A stretch of DNA of 64,000 nt from Deferrisomatales bacterium (GTDB taxonomy: Bacteria; Desulfobacterota; Deferrisomatia; Deferrisomatales; JACRMM01), in assembly GCA_033551855.1 (NCBI GenBank), contig JAWSUI010000016.1:1-64000 (forward strand), written 5' to 3'. A program made the position numbers and the translations under genes. Numbering within the stretch: the stretch's first letter is position 1; the number at the start of each line of letters is the position of its first letter. The notes under the pieces were generated by a model. The model searched no databases. It was not told the DNA's origin and saw only the letters and a list, made by a program, of their open reading frames with translations. Below are positions 40,474-50,235 of the stretch, piece by piece.

Positions 40474-41061
40474 CTACCAGTCCCCGAGCATCTCCAGGAA
40501 CCCCCGGGCCAATACGTCGATCGAGGGGTTCCCCTCTCGGAGGAGGCCCTGGATGGCGATCCCCTGAACGGCCCCAATGAAGGAAACGGCAGCGACCCGG
40601 GGGGACGACACGCGGGGGTGCCGGGCCAACACCTCCTCGAAGGGGACGACGAAGCTGTCGTAAATGCGGCGGATCGTCTCGAGGACCGGATCGCCGCTGC
40701 CCGCGAACTCCGTGGCGAGAGCGGCCAGGCAGATCGTGGCCTCCGGCTGGCGTTTGAAGTGCTCCACCATGAGGTCGACGACCCGGTGAACGCTCCCGGC
40801 CGAGGCGGGGCCCTCCAAGAGGGCGCGGTAGGCCTCGAGCCCCCGGGCCAGGCGCTCGAGCACGGCGTGCAGGAGCGCCTCCTTGCTCGCGAAATGGTGG
40901 AAGACGGCGCCCTGCGTCATGCCGATCGTTGCCGCGAGATCAGCCGTGCTGGTCTTGTGGTACCCCCGGCGGGCGAAGAGCTCGGTGGCGGCCACGAGGA
41001 TCTTGCGGCGCGTGGCCTGCGCCCTCTCGTCCTTGAGGTTCGGTCGGGGGGGAGGGGGCAA
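40474..41061 (-). CDS. TetR/AcrR-family transcriptional regulator
   Basis: TTG start after GGAGG; ILVAATELFARRGY..TSTADLA..GMTQGAVFHHFASKEAL helix-turn-helix. Confidence 0.9.
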   Translation of the reverse strand: MPPPPRPNLKDERAQATRRKILVAATELFARRGYHKTSTADLAATIGMTQGAVFHHFASKEALLHAVLERLARGLEAYRALLEGPASAGSVHRVVDLMVEHFKRQPEATICLAALATEFAGSGDPVLETIRRIYDSFVVPFEEVLARHPRVSSPRVAAVSFIGAVQGIAIQGLLREGNPSIDVLARGFLEMLGDW

Positions 41062-41226
41062 GGGGTGACCTCCGGGCACGAGGGGACGGAGACGGGGCCC
41101 TTCGCCGTGAAGATCGCCGGGCGCCGCCCGGCCGGGGTCGGAGCGCCCTTGCGAGTCTCGCCACGGCGCCTGCCCGGCAGCACCTTGCCTCACGGGGGCG
41201 CGGCTGTCAAAAGAGGGAAAAGACCA

Positions 41227-41420
41227 GGATCCGCCAGCTGGTTGGCAAGCGGAGTCCAAGGGCCCCTGCGCTTCGCGCCGCAATCCGCGGCCATTCGAAG
41301 AGGTGTCCCCGCAGTCACCGGTGCGCCGGGCTCTACCCGCTTGCGCCGGCCTCGTCGAGTCTGTGGATGCGATGCGGGGCTGTGCTCCGGAGCTCCCGAA
41401 GTCCTCCCCACAATGTGGGT
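41227..41420 (+). repeat. Repeat family B copy
   Basis: Collinear similarity to 43068-43262 (ggcaagcggagtcc, ccggtgcgccgggct, ctcgtcgagt..gtggatgcg). Confidence 0.8.
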
Positions 41421-41581
41421 CGCGGATTCTGGAAGAACGGGGACCGCCCTTCTGGATGGACATTCCGGCTCCGGACGCGGGCGCCGTCCTTGGCGGCCCG
41501 GCCCCGATCGCGGTAAGGTGCTCTCCCGAGTCCCCCCATGCCCCGGCGCGTCCCGCCGCTCAGCCCCACGGGAGGAGGCAG

Positions 41582-42091
41582 ATGACCATCGACGAGGCTC
41601 TCGTCACCGCCCTCGAGCTCGAACACCGGGTGCGGGACCACTTTCGGCGCGCGGCGGACCAGACCCCCGAGCCCGAGGCCCGGCGGTTCTTCGAGCTCAT
41701 GGCCCGGGAGGAGGAGGGGCACGTGGCGTACCTTGAGGCCAAGCTCGACCAGTGGCGGCAGACGGGGGCCCTGGGGGCGACCGAGCTGAACACGGCGGTG
41801 CCCAGCCGGGACTGGTTGGCCGAGGGGAGGGTTTCGCTGCAAGCTCAGGCCGCCGGCCTCCCGGGGCCGTCCCCCCGGCAGCACCTCTTCACCGCCCTCG
41901 AGCTCGAGCACCAGGTGAGTGAGTTCTACCGGCGCCTCGTGGCCTCCGTGGACCACCCCGAGGCCGAGGAGCTCTTCCGGAGGTTCCTGGAGATCGAGGA
42001 CGGCCACACTGCCCTGGTCCAGGCCGAGATCGACTACGAGACCCACACGGGCAACTTCTTCGACGTCCAGGAGTTCACCCTGGACGGGTGA
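41582..42091 (+). CDS. Rubrerythrin-like ferritin-fold di-iron protein
   Basis: Two ALELE...ExxH repeats (EEEGH, IEDGH); ATG 41582 after GGAGG. Confidence 0.85.
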   Translation: MTIDEALVTALELEHRVRDHFRRAADQTPEPEARRFFELMAREEEGHVAYLEAKLDQWRQTGALGATELNTAVPSRDWLAEGRVSLQAQAAGLPGPSPRQHLFTALELEHQVSEFYRRLVASVDHPEAEELFRRFLEIEDGHTALVQAEIDYETHTGNFFDVQEFTLDG

Positions 42092-43356: not shown

Positions 43357-43608
43357 TCAGCCCCCCGCTTCGAGCCCGCACAAGTAGTTCTTGATCGGGA
43401 TCGCGCCGGTGATGTGGGTCATGTCGTCGAGGACGAGGATGGGGAGCGCCCGCTCGGCCACGCTCACGAGACCGTGCCAGGCCAGGTGGGCCAGGGCGTC
43501 GGCGTTGTCGGGCCCCAGGACCTCCACGGCGACGCCGAGCCCGGGCAGGTCCACGTGCTGCTTCACGTAGTCGCACTTGCCGCAGTCTTCTTTGGTGAAG
43601 AGGGTCAT
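43357..43608 (-). CDS. Small glutaredoxin/NrdH-like protein
   Basis: From ATG 43608: MTLFTKEDCGKCDYVK...LPILV (CxxC plus cis-Pro region); 83 aa; follows nrdD. Confidence 0.75.
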   Translation of the reverse strand: MTLFTKEDCGKCDYVKQHVDLPGLGVAVEVLGPDNADALAHLAWHGLVSVAERALPILVLDDMTHITGAIPIKNYLCGLEAGG

Positions 43609-43738: not shown

Positions 43739-45874
43739 TCACTCGCCGGCCGCCTTCGCCCCGGGCAGCGCAGCGAAAAAACCCTTGTTGCGCATCCGGT
43801 CGTGGAGCTCGCCGAGCTTCCCCTTGTTCCAGGAGTTGATCTTGGTGAAATACCCCGTGATGCGCGTGATCCCCTCGACCTCGTCGCTCCCGCACCGGGG
43901 GCATTCGGCCTCGAGGCCCCGGGACGTGCGGCCGCAGGCCAGGCAGGTCGTGAACTCGGGGCTGAAGGCGATCTGGTCGTTGTGGGTGTGACGGAAGACT
44001 TTCTCCACGAAGTTGGCCAGGCTCTCGGGAGAAGGCTTCTCCTCGCCGAGCCAGAGGTGGGTGATGGCGCCGGCCTCGATGAGGGGGTGGAACAGCCCCT
44101 CGGCCCGGACCCGCTCCACGGCGTTCTGGGGGCTCCCCACGTGGAGTTGGGTGGAGTTGGTGTAGTAGATCTCCCCCCGGGAGAGGTCCCCCCGCACCGC
44201 GTGCCCTGCCTGGGGGGAGTGGTACTTGAGGTCGAGCTTCGCAAAGCGGTAGGCGGTGGACTCGGCCGGGGTCTGCTCCAGCACGAAGTGCATGCCGTGG
44301 CGCTGGCTCAGCTTCTCGGTCACGAGCTTCATGTGGGCGATGATCTTGAGGCCGAGCTTGAAGGGTGCTTCGCCGTCATGGAGCTCGTGACCGAGGTGGA
44401 CCTTCACGAGCTCGTTCAGCCCCACCATGCCGATGAGGTAGCTGACACGGTGCATGCGCAGGTAGGGCTGCCCGTCGCGGTTCATGCAGAGCAGCCCCAG
44501 GGGTCCCCGGTCCCCCTGGCTCAGAAGCCTCTCGATGAAGGCCTTCTTCTGCAGGTGGGCCCTGCAGGCGAGCTCGATCATCTCCGTGAGGTAGCGGAAG
44601 AGGAGCCCGTCGTCGCCGCCGGCGCGGTACCCGATCCGCGGCAGGTTCAAGGTGACATTCTGCAAGGCCGAGTAGCGCATCTTCCAGGGCTGCTTGGCGT
44701 CCTCGAGGTCCGACTTCTCCAGCTTGAAGGAGAGGCGGCAGCACTCCGAGATCTTGGCGGTCTCGCCCCGGTCGAAGACGAAGTACGTGTTTCCCTTCTC
44801 CGCCGAGACCTCGCAGATCTGGCGCAGGAACTCCCGGTGCCCCTCGGTCCGGAAGAACTTCTCGGTGATGTGCACGAGGGGTTTCGGAAAGAAGAACGGT
44901 CGGCCCGAGGCATCTCCCTCCCGGTAGACCTCGAAGAGGAACGTGACAAAGCGCTGGGCTTCCTTCTCGTACTCCTTGTAGGTCTTCCCGGTCAGCTCGC
45001 CCCCGGGGCCGATGGCCGGCACGTCCTCGAAGTGCTTGGGGACCTCCCAGTAGAGGTTGATGTCGCTGAAGATGGCCTGCCCGCCCCGGGCGACGGCCTG
45101 CTGGGAGTACTCGTAGATCAACATCTGGGCGAGCTGCTTCACCTCCCGGTCGGCCATCCCCACCAGGTAGGGGGCAAAGAAGAGGTTGACCGCATCCCAC
45201 CCGATGGCCCCGGCGAAGTTCGACTGCAGGGCGGCCGAGAACTTGACCATGTGCGCCAGAAGCACCTCGGCGTGCTTTGCGGGCCGGGCGTTGGCCAGAC
45301 TGTTGGGGAGGTTGAGGCCGAACTTCTTCAGATACTCGAGGCTCTGCCCGGAGCAGTACGGTCGGTCGATGAAGCCAAGGTCATGGAGGTGAAGGTCCCC
45401 GCGCATGTGGGCGTCGGCCACGTCCTGTTCGAAGACCGCGAGCAGGGCGTACTCCTTCTTGATGTTCTCCGCCAGGGTGAGGTTGGTGGCCTCGGGCCCG
45501 TGGGGAACGTTTGCGTTCTCCCGGTTGGGCTGCAAGAGGAGCTGCTCCACGTCGAAGAGGGGCATGCCCAGGCGGGTGTGCATCCGACGGGCGCTCTCCA
45601 GCCCGTGCTCGATGAGCTTGGCGTCTACCAACTCACGGATGAGGGGCGCGGTGAGCACCTCGATCTTCGAGCGCTGGATGACCCCTTCCACCGCCAGGGC
45701 CACCTCTTGAGCCGTGCCCTCGTCCAGCAGCGTCTCCCGCATGAGGGCATCGACGATCCTCTGCCGGTCCCAGCCGACGATGTCCATGTCCGACGTGCGG
45801 ACGAAGAGCACCTTGTCCGTCGCGTCGTTGGGCTGCTCCGGGGGTCGCCGTCCGAGCTCCATGACCTCGCCCAT
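43739..45874 (-). CDS. nrdD: Anaerobic (class III) ribonucleoside-triphosphate reductase with ATP cone
   Basis: HLHDLG, RPYCSG, RGGQ.IFS, ECCRL, EQTPAES, YYTNS, CxxC..CPxC and RITGYF (glycyl radical) motifs. Confidence 0.95.
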   Translation of the reverse strand: MGEVMELGRRPPEQPNDATDKVLFVRTSDMDIVGWDRQRIVDALMRETLLDEGTAQEVALAVEGVIQRSKIEVLTAPLIRELVDAKLIEHGLESARRMHTRLGMPLFDVEQLLLQPNRENANVPHGPEATNLTLAENIKKEYALLAVFEQDVADAHMRGDLHLHDLGFIDRPYCSGQSLEYLKKFGLNLPNSLANARPAKHAEVLLAHMVKFSAALQSNFAGAIGWDAVNLFFAPYLVGMADREVKQLAQMLIYEYSQQAVARGGQAIFSDINLYWEVPKHFEDVPAIGPGGELTGKTYKEYEKEAQRFVTFLFEVYREGDASGRPFFFPKPLVHITEKFFRTEGHREFLRQICEVSAEKGNTYFVFDRGETAKISECCRLSFKLEKSDLEDAKQPWKMRYSALQNVTLNLPRIGYRAGGDDGLLFRYLTEMIELACRAHLQKKAFIERLLSQGDRGPLGLLCMNRDGQPYLRMHRVSYLIGMVGLNELVKVHLGHELHDGEAPFKLGLKIIAHMKLVTEKLSQRHGMHFVLEQTPAESTAYRFAKLDLKYHSPQAGHAVRGDLSRGEIYYTNSTQLHVGSPQNAVERVRAEGLFHPLIEAGAITHLWLGEEKPSPESLANFVEKVFRHTHNDQIAFSPEFTTCLACGRTSRGLEAECPRCGSDEVEGITRITGYFTKINSWNKGKLGELHDRMRNKGFFAALPGAKAAGE

Positions 45875-45922: not shown

Positions 45923-45969
45923 TGTCTACATTTGGTGGGATGCGCGGAGCATAACACAACATGTTGTGC
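45923..45969. promoter_or_regulatory. Tandem NrdR boxes
   Basis: tgtCtAcATtTgGtgg (45923) and acaCaAcATgTtGtgc (45954), 31 bp apart, matching the acaCwAtATaTwGtg consensus upstream of nrdD. Confidence 0.82.
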
Positions 45970-46247: not shown

Positions 46248-46276
46248 TTGCGCCGCCGGGCCCCCTTCATTATGCT
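46248..46276 (+). promoter_or_regulatory. Putative sigma70 promoter of the ECF-sigma operon
   Basis: TTGCGC-17 nt-TATGCT. Confidence 0.5.
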
Positions 46277-46350
46277 GCAGCCGCCCCTCCCCGGCGCTCT
46301 CACCGACAGCTGTGACCTCGGACCCGGGGCCAGCATCTATAGGGTCGTAC

Positions 46351-46950
46351 ATGAACGAAGCGGAACTGGTGGAGCAGGCCCGACAGGGCGACTTCGGGGC
46401 GTTTGAGGCTCTGGTGACCGCTTCCGAGGGAAAGGTGTACGGCCACCTGTTGCGACTGCTCGGGAACGTGGAGGATGCACGGGATTTGCTGCAGGAGACC
46501 TACCTCAGCGCCTTTCGCCATCTGCGATCCTTCAAGGGCGACTCGGCCTTTTCGACCTGGGTCTACCGCATCGCGACCAACCACGCCCTGATGCGCCTGC
46601 GAAAGAGGAACCCGGAGACTGTCGGCCTGGACGAGATCGCCGTTCCCAGCCACGAGGAGCTCAAGGGGCGCACCATCTCGGATTGGGCGCTGAACCCCCG
46701 AGACGCCGTGCTCCGGAAGGAAGTGCGGGAACTGCTCGACCGCGCGATCCAGTCCCTGCCCGCCACCTATCGAACCGTGGTGGTTCTTCGAGACGTACAG
46801 GGGATGGACACCGCGGAGACGGCGGAGATCTTGGGCATCTCCGAGGGGGCGGTGAAGACCCGGCTGCACCGGGCGCGGATCTTTCTCCGGGAGACCTTGA
46901 ACCCCTATTTCGAGGATGAGATGGGGGGGGGCGGGACGGGGGAGCGATGA
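46351..46950 (+). CDS. ECF (RpoE-like) sigma factor
   Basis: From ATG 46351; DARDLLQETY, FSTWVYRIATN, LRDVQG and GAVKTRLHRAR motifs. Confidence 0.93.
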   Translation: MNEAELVEQARQGDFGAFEALVTASEGKVYGHLLRLLGNVEDARDLLQETYLSAFRHLRSFKGDSAFSTWVYRIATNHALMRLRKRNPETVGLDEIAVPSHEELKGRTISDWALNPRDAVLRKEVRELLDRAIQSLPATYRTVVVLRDVQGMDTAETAEILGISEGAVKTRLHRARIFLRETLNPYFEDEMGGGGTGER

Positions 46951-47204
46951 GCGAGATGCTGAGCTGCCGCGAGATCTTGGACCACCTCTCCGCGTACATC
47001 GACGAGGAGCTCGACGTCAGCCTCTGCGAGGAGATCCGACGCCACATGGAGGGCTGCAGCCCCTGCATCGCCTTCTTGAACACCTTGAAGAAGACCGTGG
47101 TGCTCTACCGCTCCTCCGGAGAGCAGGATACGATGCCGGAGGAGGTTCACATCGATCTGCACCGGTTCCTACGCTGGCGCTGCGTGCACGACGCGGGAGA
47201 ATGA
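46947..47204 (+). CDS. Soluble zinc-binding (zf-HC2/ZAS) anti-sigma factor
   Basis: C..ILDHLSAYIDEEL...HMEGCSPC (HxxxCxxC); overlaps the sigma stop; no TM segment. Confidence 0.88.
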   Translation: MSEMLSCREILDHLSAYIDEELDVSLCEEIRRHMEGCSPCIAFLNTLKKTVVLYRSSGEQDTMPEEVHIDLHRFLRWRCVHDAGE

Positions 47205-47285
47205 ATGGAAGCGATCATCTGGATCTTGGTGGTGGTGGGCGTAGTGGCCCTGCTCGTCCGCGGAGGGGGGTGAGGGAGCTGCTGA
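47205..47285 (+). CDS. Candidate 26-aa single-TM selenopeptide with a C-terminal UxxC motif (MEAIIWILVVVGVVALLVRGGG-U-GSC)
   Basis: ATG directly after the anti-sigma stop with a GGAG RBS; hydrophobic helix; TGA at 47271-47273; SECIS-like hairpin 12 nt downstream. Confidence 0.62.
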
Positions 47286-47301
47286 GCCGCCGGTCGGCGG
47301 T
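47286..47301 (+). promoter_or_regulatory. Candidate SECIS element (micropeptide)
   Basis: gccgcc-GGTC-ggcggt hairpin. Confidence 0.62.
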
Positions 47302-47355
47302 ACCCGGAATCCACCCGTTGCAGGCGCGTTGCATACCCTTTCTGAGGAGAAGATC

Positions 47356-47685
47356 ATGGCGACCGAGAAGGTTCTCATCGTGACGGACACCGATTTCGAG
47401 CAGCAAGTCCTCAAGTCCACCCAGCCCGTCCTCGTGGACTTCTGGGCGGCGTGGTGCGGGCCGTGCCGCATGATGAGCCCCGTGGTGGAAGAGCTCGCCG
47501 CAGAGTACGAGGGCAAGGTGGTGATCGCCAAGATGAACGTGGACGAAAATCCCCAGACCCCTGCCAAGTACGGGGTGCGGGGCATCCCGAATCTCAAGCT
47601 CTTCCAGGGCGGTCAGGTTGTCGACGAGATCGTGGGAGCGGTGCCCCGCCAAAAGCTGGAGGAGGTCATCCGGAAGGTTCTCTGA
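47356..47685 (+). CDS. trxA: Thioredoxin
   Basis: VLVDFWAAWCGPC and YGVRGIP motifs; ATG 47356 after GAGGAG. Confidence 0.95.
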   Translation: MATEKVLIVTDTDFEQQVLKSTQPVLVDFWAAWCGPCRMMSPVVEELAAEYEGKVVIAKMNVDENPQTPAKYGVRGIPNLKLFQGGQVVDEIVGAVPRQKLEEVIRKVL

Positions 47686-47885
47686 TGCCCCTCTTCGAGT
47701 ACCTCTGTCCGAGGTGTGGGGAGCGACGGGAGGTCCTGACCCGTTCGGGGGGGGCCGTGCGTCCCCCTTCCTGCCCGGCATGCAGGGCGGTCATGGAGAA
47801 ACAGTTCTCGCCGGTGGCCGCGCACACGCGCGCCAGGAACCAGGGGTGTTCCGCCCCCGGCGGCGGTTTCTCCTGAGCCCCGTGA
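47685..47885 (+). CDS. FmdB-family zinc-ribbon protein; probable Sec at 47874-47876 (...GCSAPGGGFS-U-AP)
   Basis: MPLFEYLCPRCG...CPAC; TGATG coupling to trxA; SECIS-like hairpin 11 nt after the TGA. Without recoding the CDS ends at 47876. Confidence 0.75.
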
Positions 47886-47887
47886 GG

Positions 47888-47903
47888 GAGGCCGGTCGGC
47901 CTC
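47888..47903 (+). promoter_or_regulatory. Candidate SECIS element (FmdB-type protein)
   Basis: gaggcc-GGTC-ggcctc perfect hairpin. Confidence 0.65.
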
Positions 47904-47955
47904 GGCCCGGGGAGAATGCTCCGAACCCGCGGAGAGAGGGACGCAGGCCGGGAAC

Positions 47956-48492
47956 ATGACGCATGCCTGCCGGCGAGGAGCCCTCGTCTTCCTGCTGTTC
48001 CTCCTCTTGCACGGCTGTTCCGGGGAGTCCTCGCCGCAGCGAGCCGACCCGCGGGAGGCGCCCGACTTCGTCTTGACCACCCTGGAAGGGGACCAGGTCA
48101 CCCTCTCCGCCTATCGAGGCAACGTGGTGCTCCTGGATTTCTGGGCCACCTGGTGCCCCCCGTGCCGCACCAGCATCGCCCACAACGTGGAGCTCCAGGA
48201 GAAGTATGGACCTCGAGGGTTCACGGTCCTGGGACTGAGCTTGGACAAGAACCCTGAGGATGTGGAACAGTTTCTTCGCCGCCAGGATGTGAATTTCCCC
48301 ATGATGTTCCTGGACGAGCCGACCCGTCAGGCGTACGGCGGGGTGCCCACGATCCCCTATTCGGTGCTCATCGACCGCACGGGGCGGATCCGTCAGAAGA
48401 AGTTGGGCTTTACACGGGAGGTGGCCGAGAGCGTGGAGAGGACCATCGAGCGTCTGCTGACGGAAGGCACACCCCTCCCCTACGGCTCGTGA
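47956..48492 (+). CDS. TlpA/ResA-family thiol-disulfide oxidoreductase, lipoprotein
   Basis: LHGC lipobox; APDF, LLDFWATWCPPC and PTIP motifs. Confidence 0.92.
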   Translation: MTHACRRGALVFLLFLLLHGCSGESSPQRADPREAPDFVLTTLEGDQVTLSAYRGNVVLLDFWATWCPPCRTSIAHNVELQEKYGPRGFTVLGLSLDKNPEDVEQFLRRQDVNFPMMFLDEPTRQAYGGVPTIPYSVLIDRTGRIRQKKLGFTREVAESVERTIERLLTEGTPLPYGS

Positions 48493-48535
48493 GTTTCGCC
48501 GGCCGTCCCCCATCCCCCGCCGGAGGTGACCCGCC

Positions 48536-49054
48536 ATGAACCGACTCCACCGGGGGGCCCTGGTCCTCTTGTTCGCCGCGGCCGTGGCCGGGGGCCCCGG
48601 ATGTTCCGGCGACCCCGTGCCGGAGTCCCCGAGGATCGCCCCCGACTTCACGCTGACTGCCCTCGACGGGGAACCGGTCCGCCTCTCCGACCACCGTGGC
48701 CGGGTGGTCTTGCTGGACTTCTGGGCCACGTGGTGCGCCCCCTGCCGGGTTTCGATTCCACACCTGGTGGAACTGCAGGAGAAGTATCGCGGCGACGGCC
48801 TCGTCGTGATCGGGATGAACATGGATCACGACCAACAGGAGCTCGAGGCCTTCCTCCGCCGGCAAACCATCAACTACCCTGTCGTGGCCGTGACCGAGGA
48901 GCTGCGAGCGGCCTACGGGGGGGTCGTCTCCATACCCTTGGCCTTTGCCGTGGACCGGAAGGGCCACATTCGGCAGCGTTTCTTGGGGTACGACCGCCGG
49001 GTGGCCAAGGACATGGAGCAGACGATCCAGACGCTGCTCCGAGAGGCCCCGTGA
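48536..49054 (+). CDS. TlpA/ResA-family thiol-disulfide oxidoreductase (tandem paralog)
   Basis: APDF, LLDFWATWCAPC and SIP motifs; clearly similar to the preceding gene. Confidence 0.92.
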   Translation: MNRLHRGALVLLFAAAVAGGPGCSGDPVPESPRIAPDFTLTALDGEPVRLSDHRGRVVLLDFWATWCAPCRVSIPHLVELQEKYRGDGLVVIGMNMDHDQQELEAFLRRQTINYPVVAVTEELRAAYGGVVSIPLAFAVDRKGHIRQRFLGYDRRVAKDMEQTIQTLLREAP

Positions 49055-49244: not shown

Positions 49245-49802
49245 TCAGGGTCTGAGAGAGCCCTCCTCCAGCCGGAGTCGCGAGGGATCGTAGCCCAGCC
49301 GAGACAACCGGGTCTCGATGCCCCGGTAGAGGGCCTCGGGGAGCGACGGGGTGCGGCTCAGGACCCACAGGTACTTCCGGGAGGGGTGCCCCACCACGGC
49401 GTACTCGTAGGCGGCGCCGAGGTCGATGATCCAGTAATCCCCGTAGAAGGGCCGGAAGAAGCTCACCCTGAGCTTTGCGTTGGTCGTCGGGTCCACGACC
49501 TTCGCGACGCCCTCCACGCTCCTCACCTCTCCGTCGGGGCTGCCTTCCCGGCACTCGTTTCGCACGTCGAGCCGGCCATCCTCGCGAAGAAGATAGGTGG
49601 CCCGGCTCGCGTAACACCCCTCCTGGAAGCGGTGCGGGTAGCGGGCCACCTCGTACCAGGTGCCCGCGTAGCGTTCCAGTTCGACCCGGGGAACCACGGG
49701 AAGCTCGGGTCCGGGCGCTCGGCGATGGCAGGAGGGCAAGAGGCAGGCGCCGAACACCAGGGCAAACCCCAGGACGGCGGAGGGTGATCGCCGGACCCCC
49801 AT
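49245..49802 (-). CDS. blc: Bacterial lipocalin
   Basis: RYAGTWYEVAR, KLRVSFF.PFYGDYWII and YLWVLSRTP motifs. Confidence 0.92.
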   Translation of the reverse strand: MGVRRSPSAVLGFALVFGACLLPSCHRRAPGPELPVVPRVELERYAGTWYEVARYPHRFQEGCYASRATYLLREDGRLDVRNECREGSPDGEVRSVEGVAKVVDPTTNAKLRVSFFRPFYGDYWIIDLGAAYEYAVVGHPSRKYLWVLSRTPSLPEALYRGIETRLSRLGYDPSRLRLEEGSLRP

Positions 49803-49803
49803 C

Positions 49804-50235
49804 TCACCGAACCGCCAGCACGGGGCAAGGGGCCGCCACGAGCACCTTGTGGGCGACGCTGCCCAGGAACAGGCCCTCCAGGTCGGAGAGGCCCCGGGTC
49901 CCCAGGACGATCAGGTCGCACCCCTCGAGCCGCGCCACCTCGCAGGCATGTCTCGCGGGATCCCCTTCCAGGACCCGCTCCTCGAAAGGCACCCCGCTCT
50001 CTTCCAGGAGGAGGCGATAGGGGGCGAGAAGCTCCTCGACCTGGGCTGCGAGGCGGTCCAGGAGCCGATGGTAGTACGGCTCGCCCAGGTACTCGGGTAC
50101 GCTCCGCCGGCAGTGGAAGAGGAGCACCGACGCACCGCAGAATCGGGCCAGGGCGGCCGCGCGATGGGACGCCACCCGGGCACTTGGGGAGCCGTCCACG
50201 GCCAGGAGGATTTTCTGAAAGCCGCCGGTGTCCAT
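49804..50235 (-). CDS. Universal stress protein
   Basis: ILLAVDGS, GDPA and DLIVLGTRG..LGSVAHKVL..APCPVL motifs. Confidence 0.92.
   Translation of the reverse strand: MDTGGFQKILLAVDGSPSARVASHRAAALARFCGASVLLFHCRRSVPEYLGEPYYHRLLDRLAAQVEELLAPYRLLLEESGVPFEERVLEGDPARHACEVARLEGCDLIVLGTRGLSDLEGLFLGSVAHKVLVAAPCPVLAVR

Follow-up and report, generated by a model that had tools for sequence, protein, structure and literature searches.

A conserved sigma factor/zinc anti-sigma operon in Deferrisomatales joins thioredoxin and TlpA genes to two predicted selenocysteine microproteins

We analysed 64,000 nucleotides of the Deferrisomatales bacterium assembly GCA_033551855.1 (contig JAWSUI010000016.1, positions 1 to 64,000, forward strand; hereafter the window, from a genome of 4.24 Mb and 69.6% GC), and in it a seven-gene cluster at 46351-49054 that an earlier note had described as a redox operon headed by an extracytoplasmic function (ECF) sigma factor. 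On balance, we favour the view that this conserved operon is an autoregulated disulfide-stress switch: a soluble zinc anti-sigma, we predict, binds the ECF sigma until oxidation frees it, whereupon transcription would rise for thioredoxin, for two microproteins that likely contain selenocysteine and for one or two TlpA reductases with a predicted periplasmic location. By analogy, the operon probably works like SigR-RsrA of Streptomyces coelicolor but outside its sigma group, ECF12. Both small proteins are uncatalogued and, judging from their sequences, very probably selenoproteins.

Layout and conservation of the operon

All seven genes were confirmed, on the + strand. They encode the ECF sigma factor (46351..46950, 199 aa, assigned by NCBIfam and structure comparison); a soluble zinc anti-sigma of the CHCC type (zf-HC2; 46947..47204, 85 aa, assigned by motif, hydropathy and a complex model); a 26-aa single-helix membrane micropeptide ending RGGG-U-GSC (47205..47285); a WCGPC thioredoxin (47356..47685, 109 aa, over the TIGR01068 cut-off); an FmdB-family zinc ribbon with a C55-x8-U64-AP tail (47685..47885); and two TlpA/ResA-like redoxins, one with WCPPC (47956..48492) and a duplicate copy with WCAPC (48536..49054). 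Both redoxins have a predicted lipoprotein signal, that of the first (LHG-C) being assigned by inspection, with the same layout in relatives. The tight coupling claimed in the earlier note holds for three junctions, with an ATGA overlap between sigma and anti-sigma, a 0-nt gap between anti-sigma and micropeptide, and TGATG joining thioredoxin and zinc ribbon, but not for thioredoxin, tlpA1 and tlpA2, which are preceded by gaps of 70, 70 and 43 nt. The statement that every product except sigma carries CxxC or UxxC likewise needs qualification: the motifs are present, but the zinc-ribbon selenocysteine lies outside a UxxC (C55...U64), and the CxxC pairs of the anti-sigma and the zinc ribbon are, as read from their sequences, zinc-ligand motifs.

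A gene-neighbourhood survey, as the earlier note had proposed, shows that the gene order is conserved across Deferrisomatales, so that the lack of conservation in any other genome, which would have counted against the proposal, was not observed. The order sigma, anti-sigma, micropeptide, thioredoxin is kept in 19 of 20 same-order genomes; the anti-sigma was recovered in 19 of the 20, the one miss falling in a genome that is 91% complete. The zinc ribbon and at least one TlpA come next in 18/18 relatives whose contig extends far enough. Two TlpA paralogs are indeed encoded in the window, as claimed, but only 6 of these 18 relatives have the second copy, the other 12 having one.

Two predicted selenoproteins

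The earlier proposal of two selenocysteine (Sec) candidates is strengthened by invariant UGAs, by hairpins at the distance of a selenocysteine insertion sequence (SECIS) and by the presence of the Sec machinery. Genes for tRNA-Sec, selA, selB and selD are present and over their cut-offs, and selD itself has an in-frame TGA. The predicted Sec codons lie at 47271-47273 in the micropeptide gene (stop 47283-47285) and 47874-47876 in the zinc-ribbon gene (stop 47883-47885), and both UGAs are invariant across the order. Each is followed, after the true stop codon, by a predicted SECIS hairpin with a GGUC loop (47286..47301 and 47888..47903, both +), 18 and 17 nt past the UGA respectively; the model given in the accessible part of a selenoprotein review places a G-containing apical loop 16-37 nt downstream (PMC13188914). 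Chance is a poor explanation for them, given that invariance and the fact that, of the 72,299 TGA triplets of the genome, only 31 fit a SECIS-like pattern tuned on the pair.

The micropeptide UGA is kept in 20/20 genomes (the window and 19 relatives), between anti-sigma and thioredoxin. In every genome there is a short hydrophobic open reading frame (ORF) with a Gly-rich stretch, then the UGA and a Cys, which stands 2-3 residues past U (UxxC in 18, UxC in 2). The start lies 22 codons ahead of the UGA in 16/19 relatives; the frame is open in 20/20, the other two frames having stops in 16/20 and 2/20; identity by codon position is 0.65/0.72/0.52, and a hydropathy of 2.2-3.7 is retained at 35-69% identity. 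A stop follows the Cys in 19/20, and the core of the hairpin, CGCCGGTC, is invariant in 20/20. No Pfam or NCBIfam model matches the micropeptide. A profile search of 251 genomes of the phylum gave a weak match in 29. RGGG-U-GSC-stop was found in two genomes of one family (L315, G240:C80; L317, G120:C6), where no hairpin passed the filter, and a variant, RGGC-U-GR-stop, in five genomes of family f13 (L320, L321, L323, L327, L335), with a hairpin in three of the five; five of the 29 weak matches belong to a different, 'Geobacter lovleyi' family, and the remainder look unrelated. We estimate from this sequence record, with high confidence, that the micropeptide is a selenoprotein. At L315 and L317 the peptide directly follows an FmdB zinc ribbon ending SPFR, no sigma factor stands beside it, and the gene that comes after it is one that we take to be DUF302-like.

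The zinc ribbon passes TIGR02605 (FmdB; 42.1 bits against a cut-off of 31.3), and all four zinc ligands are Cys in 33/33 aligned zinc ribbons. Its AlphaFold model (mean pLDDT 72.5) has a confident ribbon and a disordered linker, residues 46-57. The tail reads C...GFS-U-x-stop, with UGA, one codon and a stop in 18/18 relatives and two codons in the window. In a test that did not select on the stop codon, a profile ending before the UGA was run against the 251 genomes, and 90 of 150 listed loci were read (the top 30 and 60 further down the list among those reaching the tail, 935 weaker matches falling outside it); nine of these 90 had served for training or come from the order itself, and a TGA-requiring pattern had originally supplied 13 of the 46 training rows. 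TGA stands at the tail in 88/90 loci, with a second stop within two codons in 84/90, and the two TAG-ended loci belong to another subfamily. A hairpin with five or more stem pairs and a G-containing loop, placed 15-22 nt past the UGA, is found in 80/86 loci against 9.5 in shuffles, counts in which the best hairpin per sequence was selected; of the 2352 TGA-ended long ORFs of the window's genome, only 5 show both second stop and hairpin. The GF[ST]-U tail is absent from 5 genomes of other phyla. That the zinc ribbon is a selenoprotein seems to us, on the sequences, a shade more certain even than for the micropeptide. At two loci (L322, L330) a 'Geobacter lovleyi'-type membrane Sec gene lies 200-270 nt upstream of the gene for the zinc ribbon with the Sec tail (zinc-ribbon-U).

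Several observations weigh against Sec. Both hairpins fold no better than shuffles in 70% GC DNA (z -0.84 to +1.17), and that of the micropeptide varies so little within the order that it shows little covariation. Among 120 and 150 database matches to the zinc ribbon, none has Cys in place of the tail Sec, and no convincing Cys homologue of the micropeptide occurs in the 251 phylum genomes, so that the Sec/Cys pair by which selenoproteins are usually recognised is missing for both tails. A single-sequence homologue search returned the query only. Each UGA could instead simply end translation, with the second stop as a tandem back-up and the hairpin as a terminator or stabiliser; TGA is the most frequent stop codon of this genome, ending 2352 of its 3602 long ORFs. 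We consider this very improbable: TGA is invariably the first stop, whereas the second may be TGA, TAG or TAA, the Cys past the peptide UGA is invariant, and the zinc-ribbon hairpins cluster 16-22 nt past the UGA with a G in the first two loop positions in 74/86 and a U tract in only 6/86. Furthermore, selA was detected in 233/251 phylum genomes, and of ten near-complete genomes negative for it (27 of their 29 loci parsed; selB checked in four), only two, both with selB, show the tail signature.

Where Sec is encoded only a few codons before the end of a gene, as predicted here, the SECIS comes to lie past the true stop, and to a gene caller the gene looks complete. This points to an annotation blind spot: database homologues of the zinc ribbon end at the UGA column in 72/120 and 121/150 matches, the family being cut at the UGA in the databases searched. 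Both small proteins are short enough for direct synthesis.

Two further observations concern Sec elsewhere in the genome. ARAGORN calls two tRNA-Sec genes (C4:73340-73437 and C8:65254-65343), the second about 2 kb from a trxB-like gene. Other candidates with TGA and hairpin are a hydrophobic ORF with ULSC (C12:38283, -), an AhpD/CMD-like GGCELU (C46:25038, -) and a UGG ORF (C92:3147, -).

Sigma factor, anti-sigma and promoter

The anti-sigma carries the motif HMEGCSPC, with ligands C7, H33, C37 and C40 and further conserved cysteines C27 and C79. Because its best 17-residue hydropathy is only 1.11, we assign it no membrane helix. The zinc motif, C-x25-H-x3-C-x2-C, is of the RsrA type, the Cys-to-His spacing is 26 in 120/120 homologues, and the sole match in the PDB is RsrA (E 2.4e-7); an ESM Atlas search contributed zf-HC2 clusters only, and Deferrisoma camini, a cultured relative, has an anti-sigma that is 69% identical. 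The portion of PMC4960319 available describes an equal Cys-His spacing in RsrA (C11/H37), reports that the N-terminal Cys is needed for redox release, and recognises redox-sensing zinc anti-sigma factors (ZAS) by an N-terminal Cys 23-26 residues before HxxxCxxC; such a Cys is present here, giving a CHCC arrangement. These features agree with the soluble RsrA-type anti-sigma of the earlier note. A model of the sigma/anti-sigma complex scored 0.80, the best control scoring 0.00; contacts agreed to at least 96% between runs, and partner pLDDT was at least 80. The mark used is reached by 116/157 solved pairs and 2/215 mismatched pairs. The pair looks like a textbook one, and the model may pass through likeness to solved complexes.

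The sigma factor appears to lie outside the SigR/SigH clade (ECF12). Among solved structures it is nearest to SigW, and SigW, AlgU and RpoE all outscore SigH (E 2.7e-43 for SigW/RpoE, 1.4e-28 for SigH); the SigH_actino model gives it 84 bits against a cut-off of 252, and it falls below every specific NCBIfam cut-off. It shares with ECF12 a soluble zinc-finger anti-sigma at the +1 position, but not the promoter GGAAT-N-GTT: the conserved motif here is GTnACC...CATC, a pair found in 20/20 genomes with 15-16 nt between GTnACn and CATC. In the window it forms a predicted ECF autoregulatory promoter, GTGACC...GCATCT, at 46312..46338 (+). In the searched parts of the supplement to PMC7826278, other parts of which may hold one, no ECF group has a matching promoter motif. 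Further upstream, conserved columns of the alignment mark a predicted housekeeping sigma70-type promoter, TTGCGC-N17-TATGCT (46248..46276, +); a sigma70 consensus scan returned nothing, not even for this site, and Rfam gave no match.

The nearest relatives of the sigma outside the order fall into two families, f16 and f40. In f16, five genomes have sigma, ZAS, trxB and zinc-ribbon-U together and share a CATCT element, which supports functional coupling to the thioredoxin system; two of the five carry a different membrane gene with an in-frame UGA inside the cluster. This gene, seen between ZAS and trxB (L344 in G073; L343/L374 in G142), encodes two helices and GxT-U-xLC.

A number of findings speak against an RsrA-like switch. 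According to the available part of PMC3177212, RsrA owes its sensitivity to four residues, an acidic pair before C41 and a hydrophobic and a charged residue after C44. Only the hydrophobic residue after the last Cys is kept here (119/120 homologues); D/E stands at position 39 in 45/120, position 40 has G in 82/120 and an acidic residue in 37/120, and at position 46 there is A in 94/120 and never E/R. The RsrA model gives the anti-sigma 41.8 bits, below its cut-off of 62.5. The f40 sigma/ZAS pairs have no redox neighbours, so the coupling is not obligatory, and the 19 same-order genomes are kin rather than independent samples. Finally, no conserved ECF site was found upstream of trxB-like, ccdA-like, selB or selD genes.

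Candidate sites elsewhere and the nrdD neighbourhood

A position weight matrix scan of the genome with the ECF-type motif gave 29 sites. As regulon members we rejected a site on contig C6, absent in 4/4 readable relatives; one that precedes a trxB-like gene but falls within the gene before it, and that none of the four relatives' loci read contains; those on contigs C10 and C1, inside genes; and a link to selA through a contig C38 site, which is about 3.9 kb upstream with a terminator-like hairpin directly after it. A second promoter scan, whose spacer was incompatible with the operon's own promoter, gave mostly in-gene matches and was likewise set aside. The C38 site itself, GTAACCT...GCATCTATG after a clpA-like gene (C38:16544-16430, -), is kept in all three genomes of the genus (L396, L397, L398); about 80 nt further on comes a conserved hairpin that carries a U tract and has no Rfam match. 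Site and hairpin possibly mark an attenuator or a short RNA that depends on the sigma. Without the site, the hairpin is also present in two other genomes (G003 and G006), in another context.

As the earlier note had it, nrdD and its NrdH-like partner lie divergent from the operon on the - strand. The nrdD gene (43739..45874) encodes a class III ribonucleotide reductase with an ATP cone and a SECCRL motif, and is divergent in 18/19 relatives; CCRL is found in all 17 relatives where the motif was read. The gene downstream of it (43357..43608, 83 aa) encodes an NrdH/glutaredoxin-like CxxC protein and recurs in 15/19 relatives' regions, but its TIGR02194 match is weak (E 0.043). Conserved palindromes of its own stand upstream of nrdD; one of them (45955..45968, -), seen by eye as a similar motif in the relatives compared, we take to resemble an NrdR box. 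By inspection, a ferritin/rubrerythrin-like ORF (41527-42091) and a TetR-like ORF (40474-41463) precede the nrdD block, while at the other end lipocalin (Blc) and Usp genes (49245-50235, -) converge on the operon end and are kept only in two same-genus relatives.

Electron supply

By a motif scan of the genome, the operon thioredoxin is the only classical cytoplasmic one. The two TlpA-like proteins are 52% identical, and both fall below all specific NCBIfam cut-offs. No gene for TrxB, CcdA/DsbD or another polytopic electron conduit occurs within 46351-49054, so the unit is not self-contained. Two CcdA-like (PF02683) and four TrxB-like genes, none of the latter over cut-off, lie on other contigs and lack a conserved ECF-type site, and with this the self-contained relay of the earlier note loses its support. 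Three of the four TrxB-like genes have N-terminal fusions (C3:24040-25206, C4:53891-55057, C8:67664-68713), glutaredoxin-like with CxxC in two and YHS-like in one.

Discussion

In the mechanism that we propose, the upstream sigma70-type site would give basal thioredoxin and the GTGACC/GCATCT site sigma-dependent induction. Oxidation would form a disulfide between C7 and C37/C40 of the anti-sigma and eject its zinc, as in RsrA, and thioredoxin would re-reduce it, closing the loop. SelB would read each UGA via the hairpin just beyond the real stop codon. The micropeptide, with a basic residue after its helix, is predicted to sit N-out/C-in, presenting U-x-x-C toward the cytoplasm at the membrane, and the zinc ribbon would carry its C...U on a flexible tail; both presumably cycle between selenenylsulfide and selenol, reduced by thioredoxin. 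The TlpA lipoproteins would depend on CcdA/DsbD and thioredoxin on TrxB, whose genes lie outside the operon.

The same parts can be read in other ways. With Cys or Sec ligands in all its small products and the RsrA acidic flank only partly kept, the operon might answer metal stress, the anti-sigma, zinc ribbon and Sec tails sensing or binding soft metals (Hg, As, Cu, Zn) while thioredoxin and TlpA repair the damage; one zinc-ribbon-U gene of the phylum stands behind an ArsR-like gene (L078), and in two genomes the zinc ribbon adjoins the same micropeptide beside genes that we take to be DUF2892-like and DUF302-like. We think this unlikely, since the recurring partners are trxA, trxB and TlpA, and the operons of the 19 relatives, compared only with the window's own proteins, contain no transporter or metal reductase. 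Slightly less likely again is a housekeeping cluster, in which trxA, zinc ribbon and TlpA stand behind a sigma/anti-sigma pair answering another signal and serve mainly as reductant for NrdD. In its favour, there is a conserved sigma70-type site ahead of the operon, SigW is the nearest match of the sigma, and nrdD, the neighbour in 18/19 relatives, has a CCR motif like that discussed for protein-reduced NrdD in the available text of PMC4493059, which also states that thioredoxin can serve some class III reductases; against this, the anti-sigma is soluble and of the CHCC type, and regulators of the same clade show an independent link to trxB and zinc-ribbon-U where nrdD is lacking. A plausible ground for the nrdD adjacency is a shared need for thiol reductant rather than co-regulation.

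The earlier note had the micropeptide pass electrons from thioredoxin across the membrane to TlpA, with selenium supply gating the response. The peptide gene does adjoin trx, at least one TlpA accompanies it in 18/18 relatives, and the lack of CcdA/DsbD in the operon leaves the TlpA donor open. However, a single helix of a 26-residue peptide with U and C both at its C-terminal end offers no evident route for electrons across the membrane, two CcdA-like genes exist elsewhere in the genome, the peptide is found outside the order without TlpA or trx nearby, and zinc-ribbon-U occurs in many unrelated contexts. Nor can selenium gate translation of the regulators, because both UGAs come only after the sigma and anti-sigma genes; trx and tlpA, for their part, each start from a region of their own after a further 70 nt. 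We therefore hold this reading to be improbable, and do not retain the response to selenium supply in that form; an effect of selenium on the operon is possible as indirect feedback only. One such feedback, which we offer as a doubtful conjecture, makes the two selenoproteins the off-switch of the sigma: membrane selenopeptide and zinc-ribbon tail would carry electrons from thioredoxin to the oxidised anti-sigma, and in selenium shortage both would be truncated at the UGA, the anti-sigma would stay oxidised and the operon would stay on. If this were true, the regulator would integrate thiol stress and selenium status by means of one of the smallest proposed selenoproteins (26 aa).

The disulfide-stress switch, as we prefer to read the operon, would carry a thiol switch of the RsrA kind over to another clade of sigma factors, in anaerobic Desulfobacterota, and connect it with selenoproteins. 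The earlier note knew of no description of the arrangement, and we found none in the full-text literature searched, including the available parts of PMC2398784, PMC11227280 and PMC10650576, most subscription papers being outside the search. The table of 119 selenoprotein families in the accessible part of PMC13188914 lists FmdB only as UxxU and has no 26-aa membrane peptide; neither family was found by tail motifs in deep-Sep supplements 1 and 3 (PMC12013277), the parts searched; and NCBIfam has no Sec-specific model for either. Very likely, then, two protein families would be added to the catalogues checked.

Comparison with known systems

With SigR-RsrA and SigH-RshA (ECF12) the operon shares an ECF sigma and, directly behind it, a soluble CHCC anti-sigma of one domain whose Cys-His spacing is identical, as well as a link to thioredoxin genes and predicted autoregulation. 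It differs in a sigma nearer SigW/RpoE, in its promoter (GTGACC/GCATCT rather than GGAAT/GTT), in keeping the acidic flank of the HCC motif only in part, in encoding its targets, with TlpA and two Sec genes among them, within the operon itself, and in an anaerobic host. The zinc ribbon belongs to the same family as the catalogued FmdB selenoprotein (TIGR02605; PMC2398784, PMC13188914), which likewise has UGA-encoded Sec; in that form, of which deep-Sep supplement 3 holds a representative, Sec replaces the first two of the zinc ligands (UxxU), whereas ours has four Cys ligands and its Sec as the second or third last residue of a flexible tail. The micropeptide, like the 'Geobacter lovleyi'-type protein, is small, with one N-terminal membrane helix and then Sec, but only the hydrophobic helix is alike, since that protein has about 50 aa and PKLGxxT-U-MxxxC with a tail against 26 aa and RGGG-U-GSC-stop here. 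Eukaryotic SELENOK and SELENOS, as described in the available part of PMC10650576, also have a single N-terminal helix, Gly and basic residues, and Sec near a cytoplasmic C-terminus; this is an analogy of layout only, the micropeptide being far shorter, with Sec fourth from the end, a resolving Cys and a bacterial SECIS. The two redoxins share with TlpA/ResA/DsbE the redoxin fold, WCxPC and a predicted lipoprotein anchor, but, unlike those, have no cytochrome c maturation or CcdA gene adjacent to their operon.

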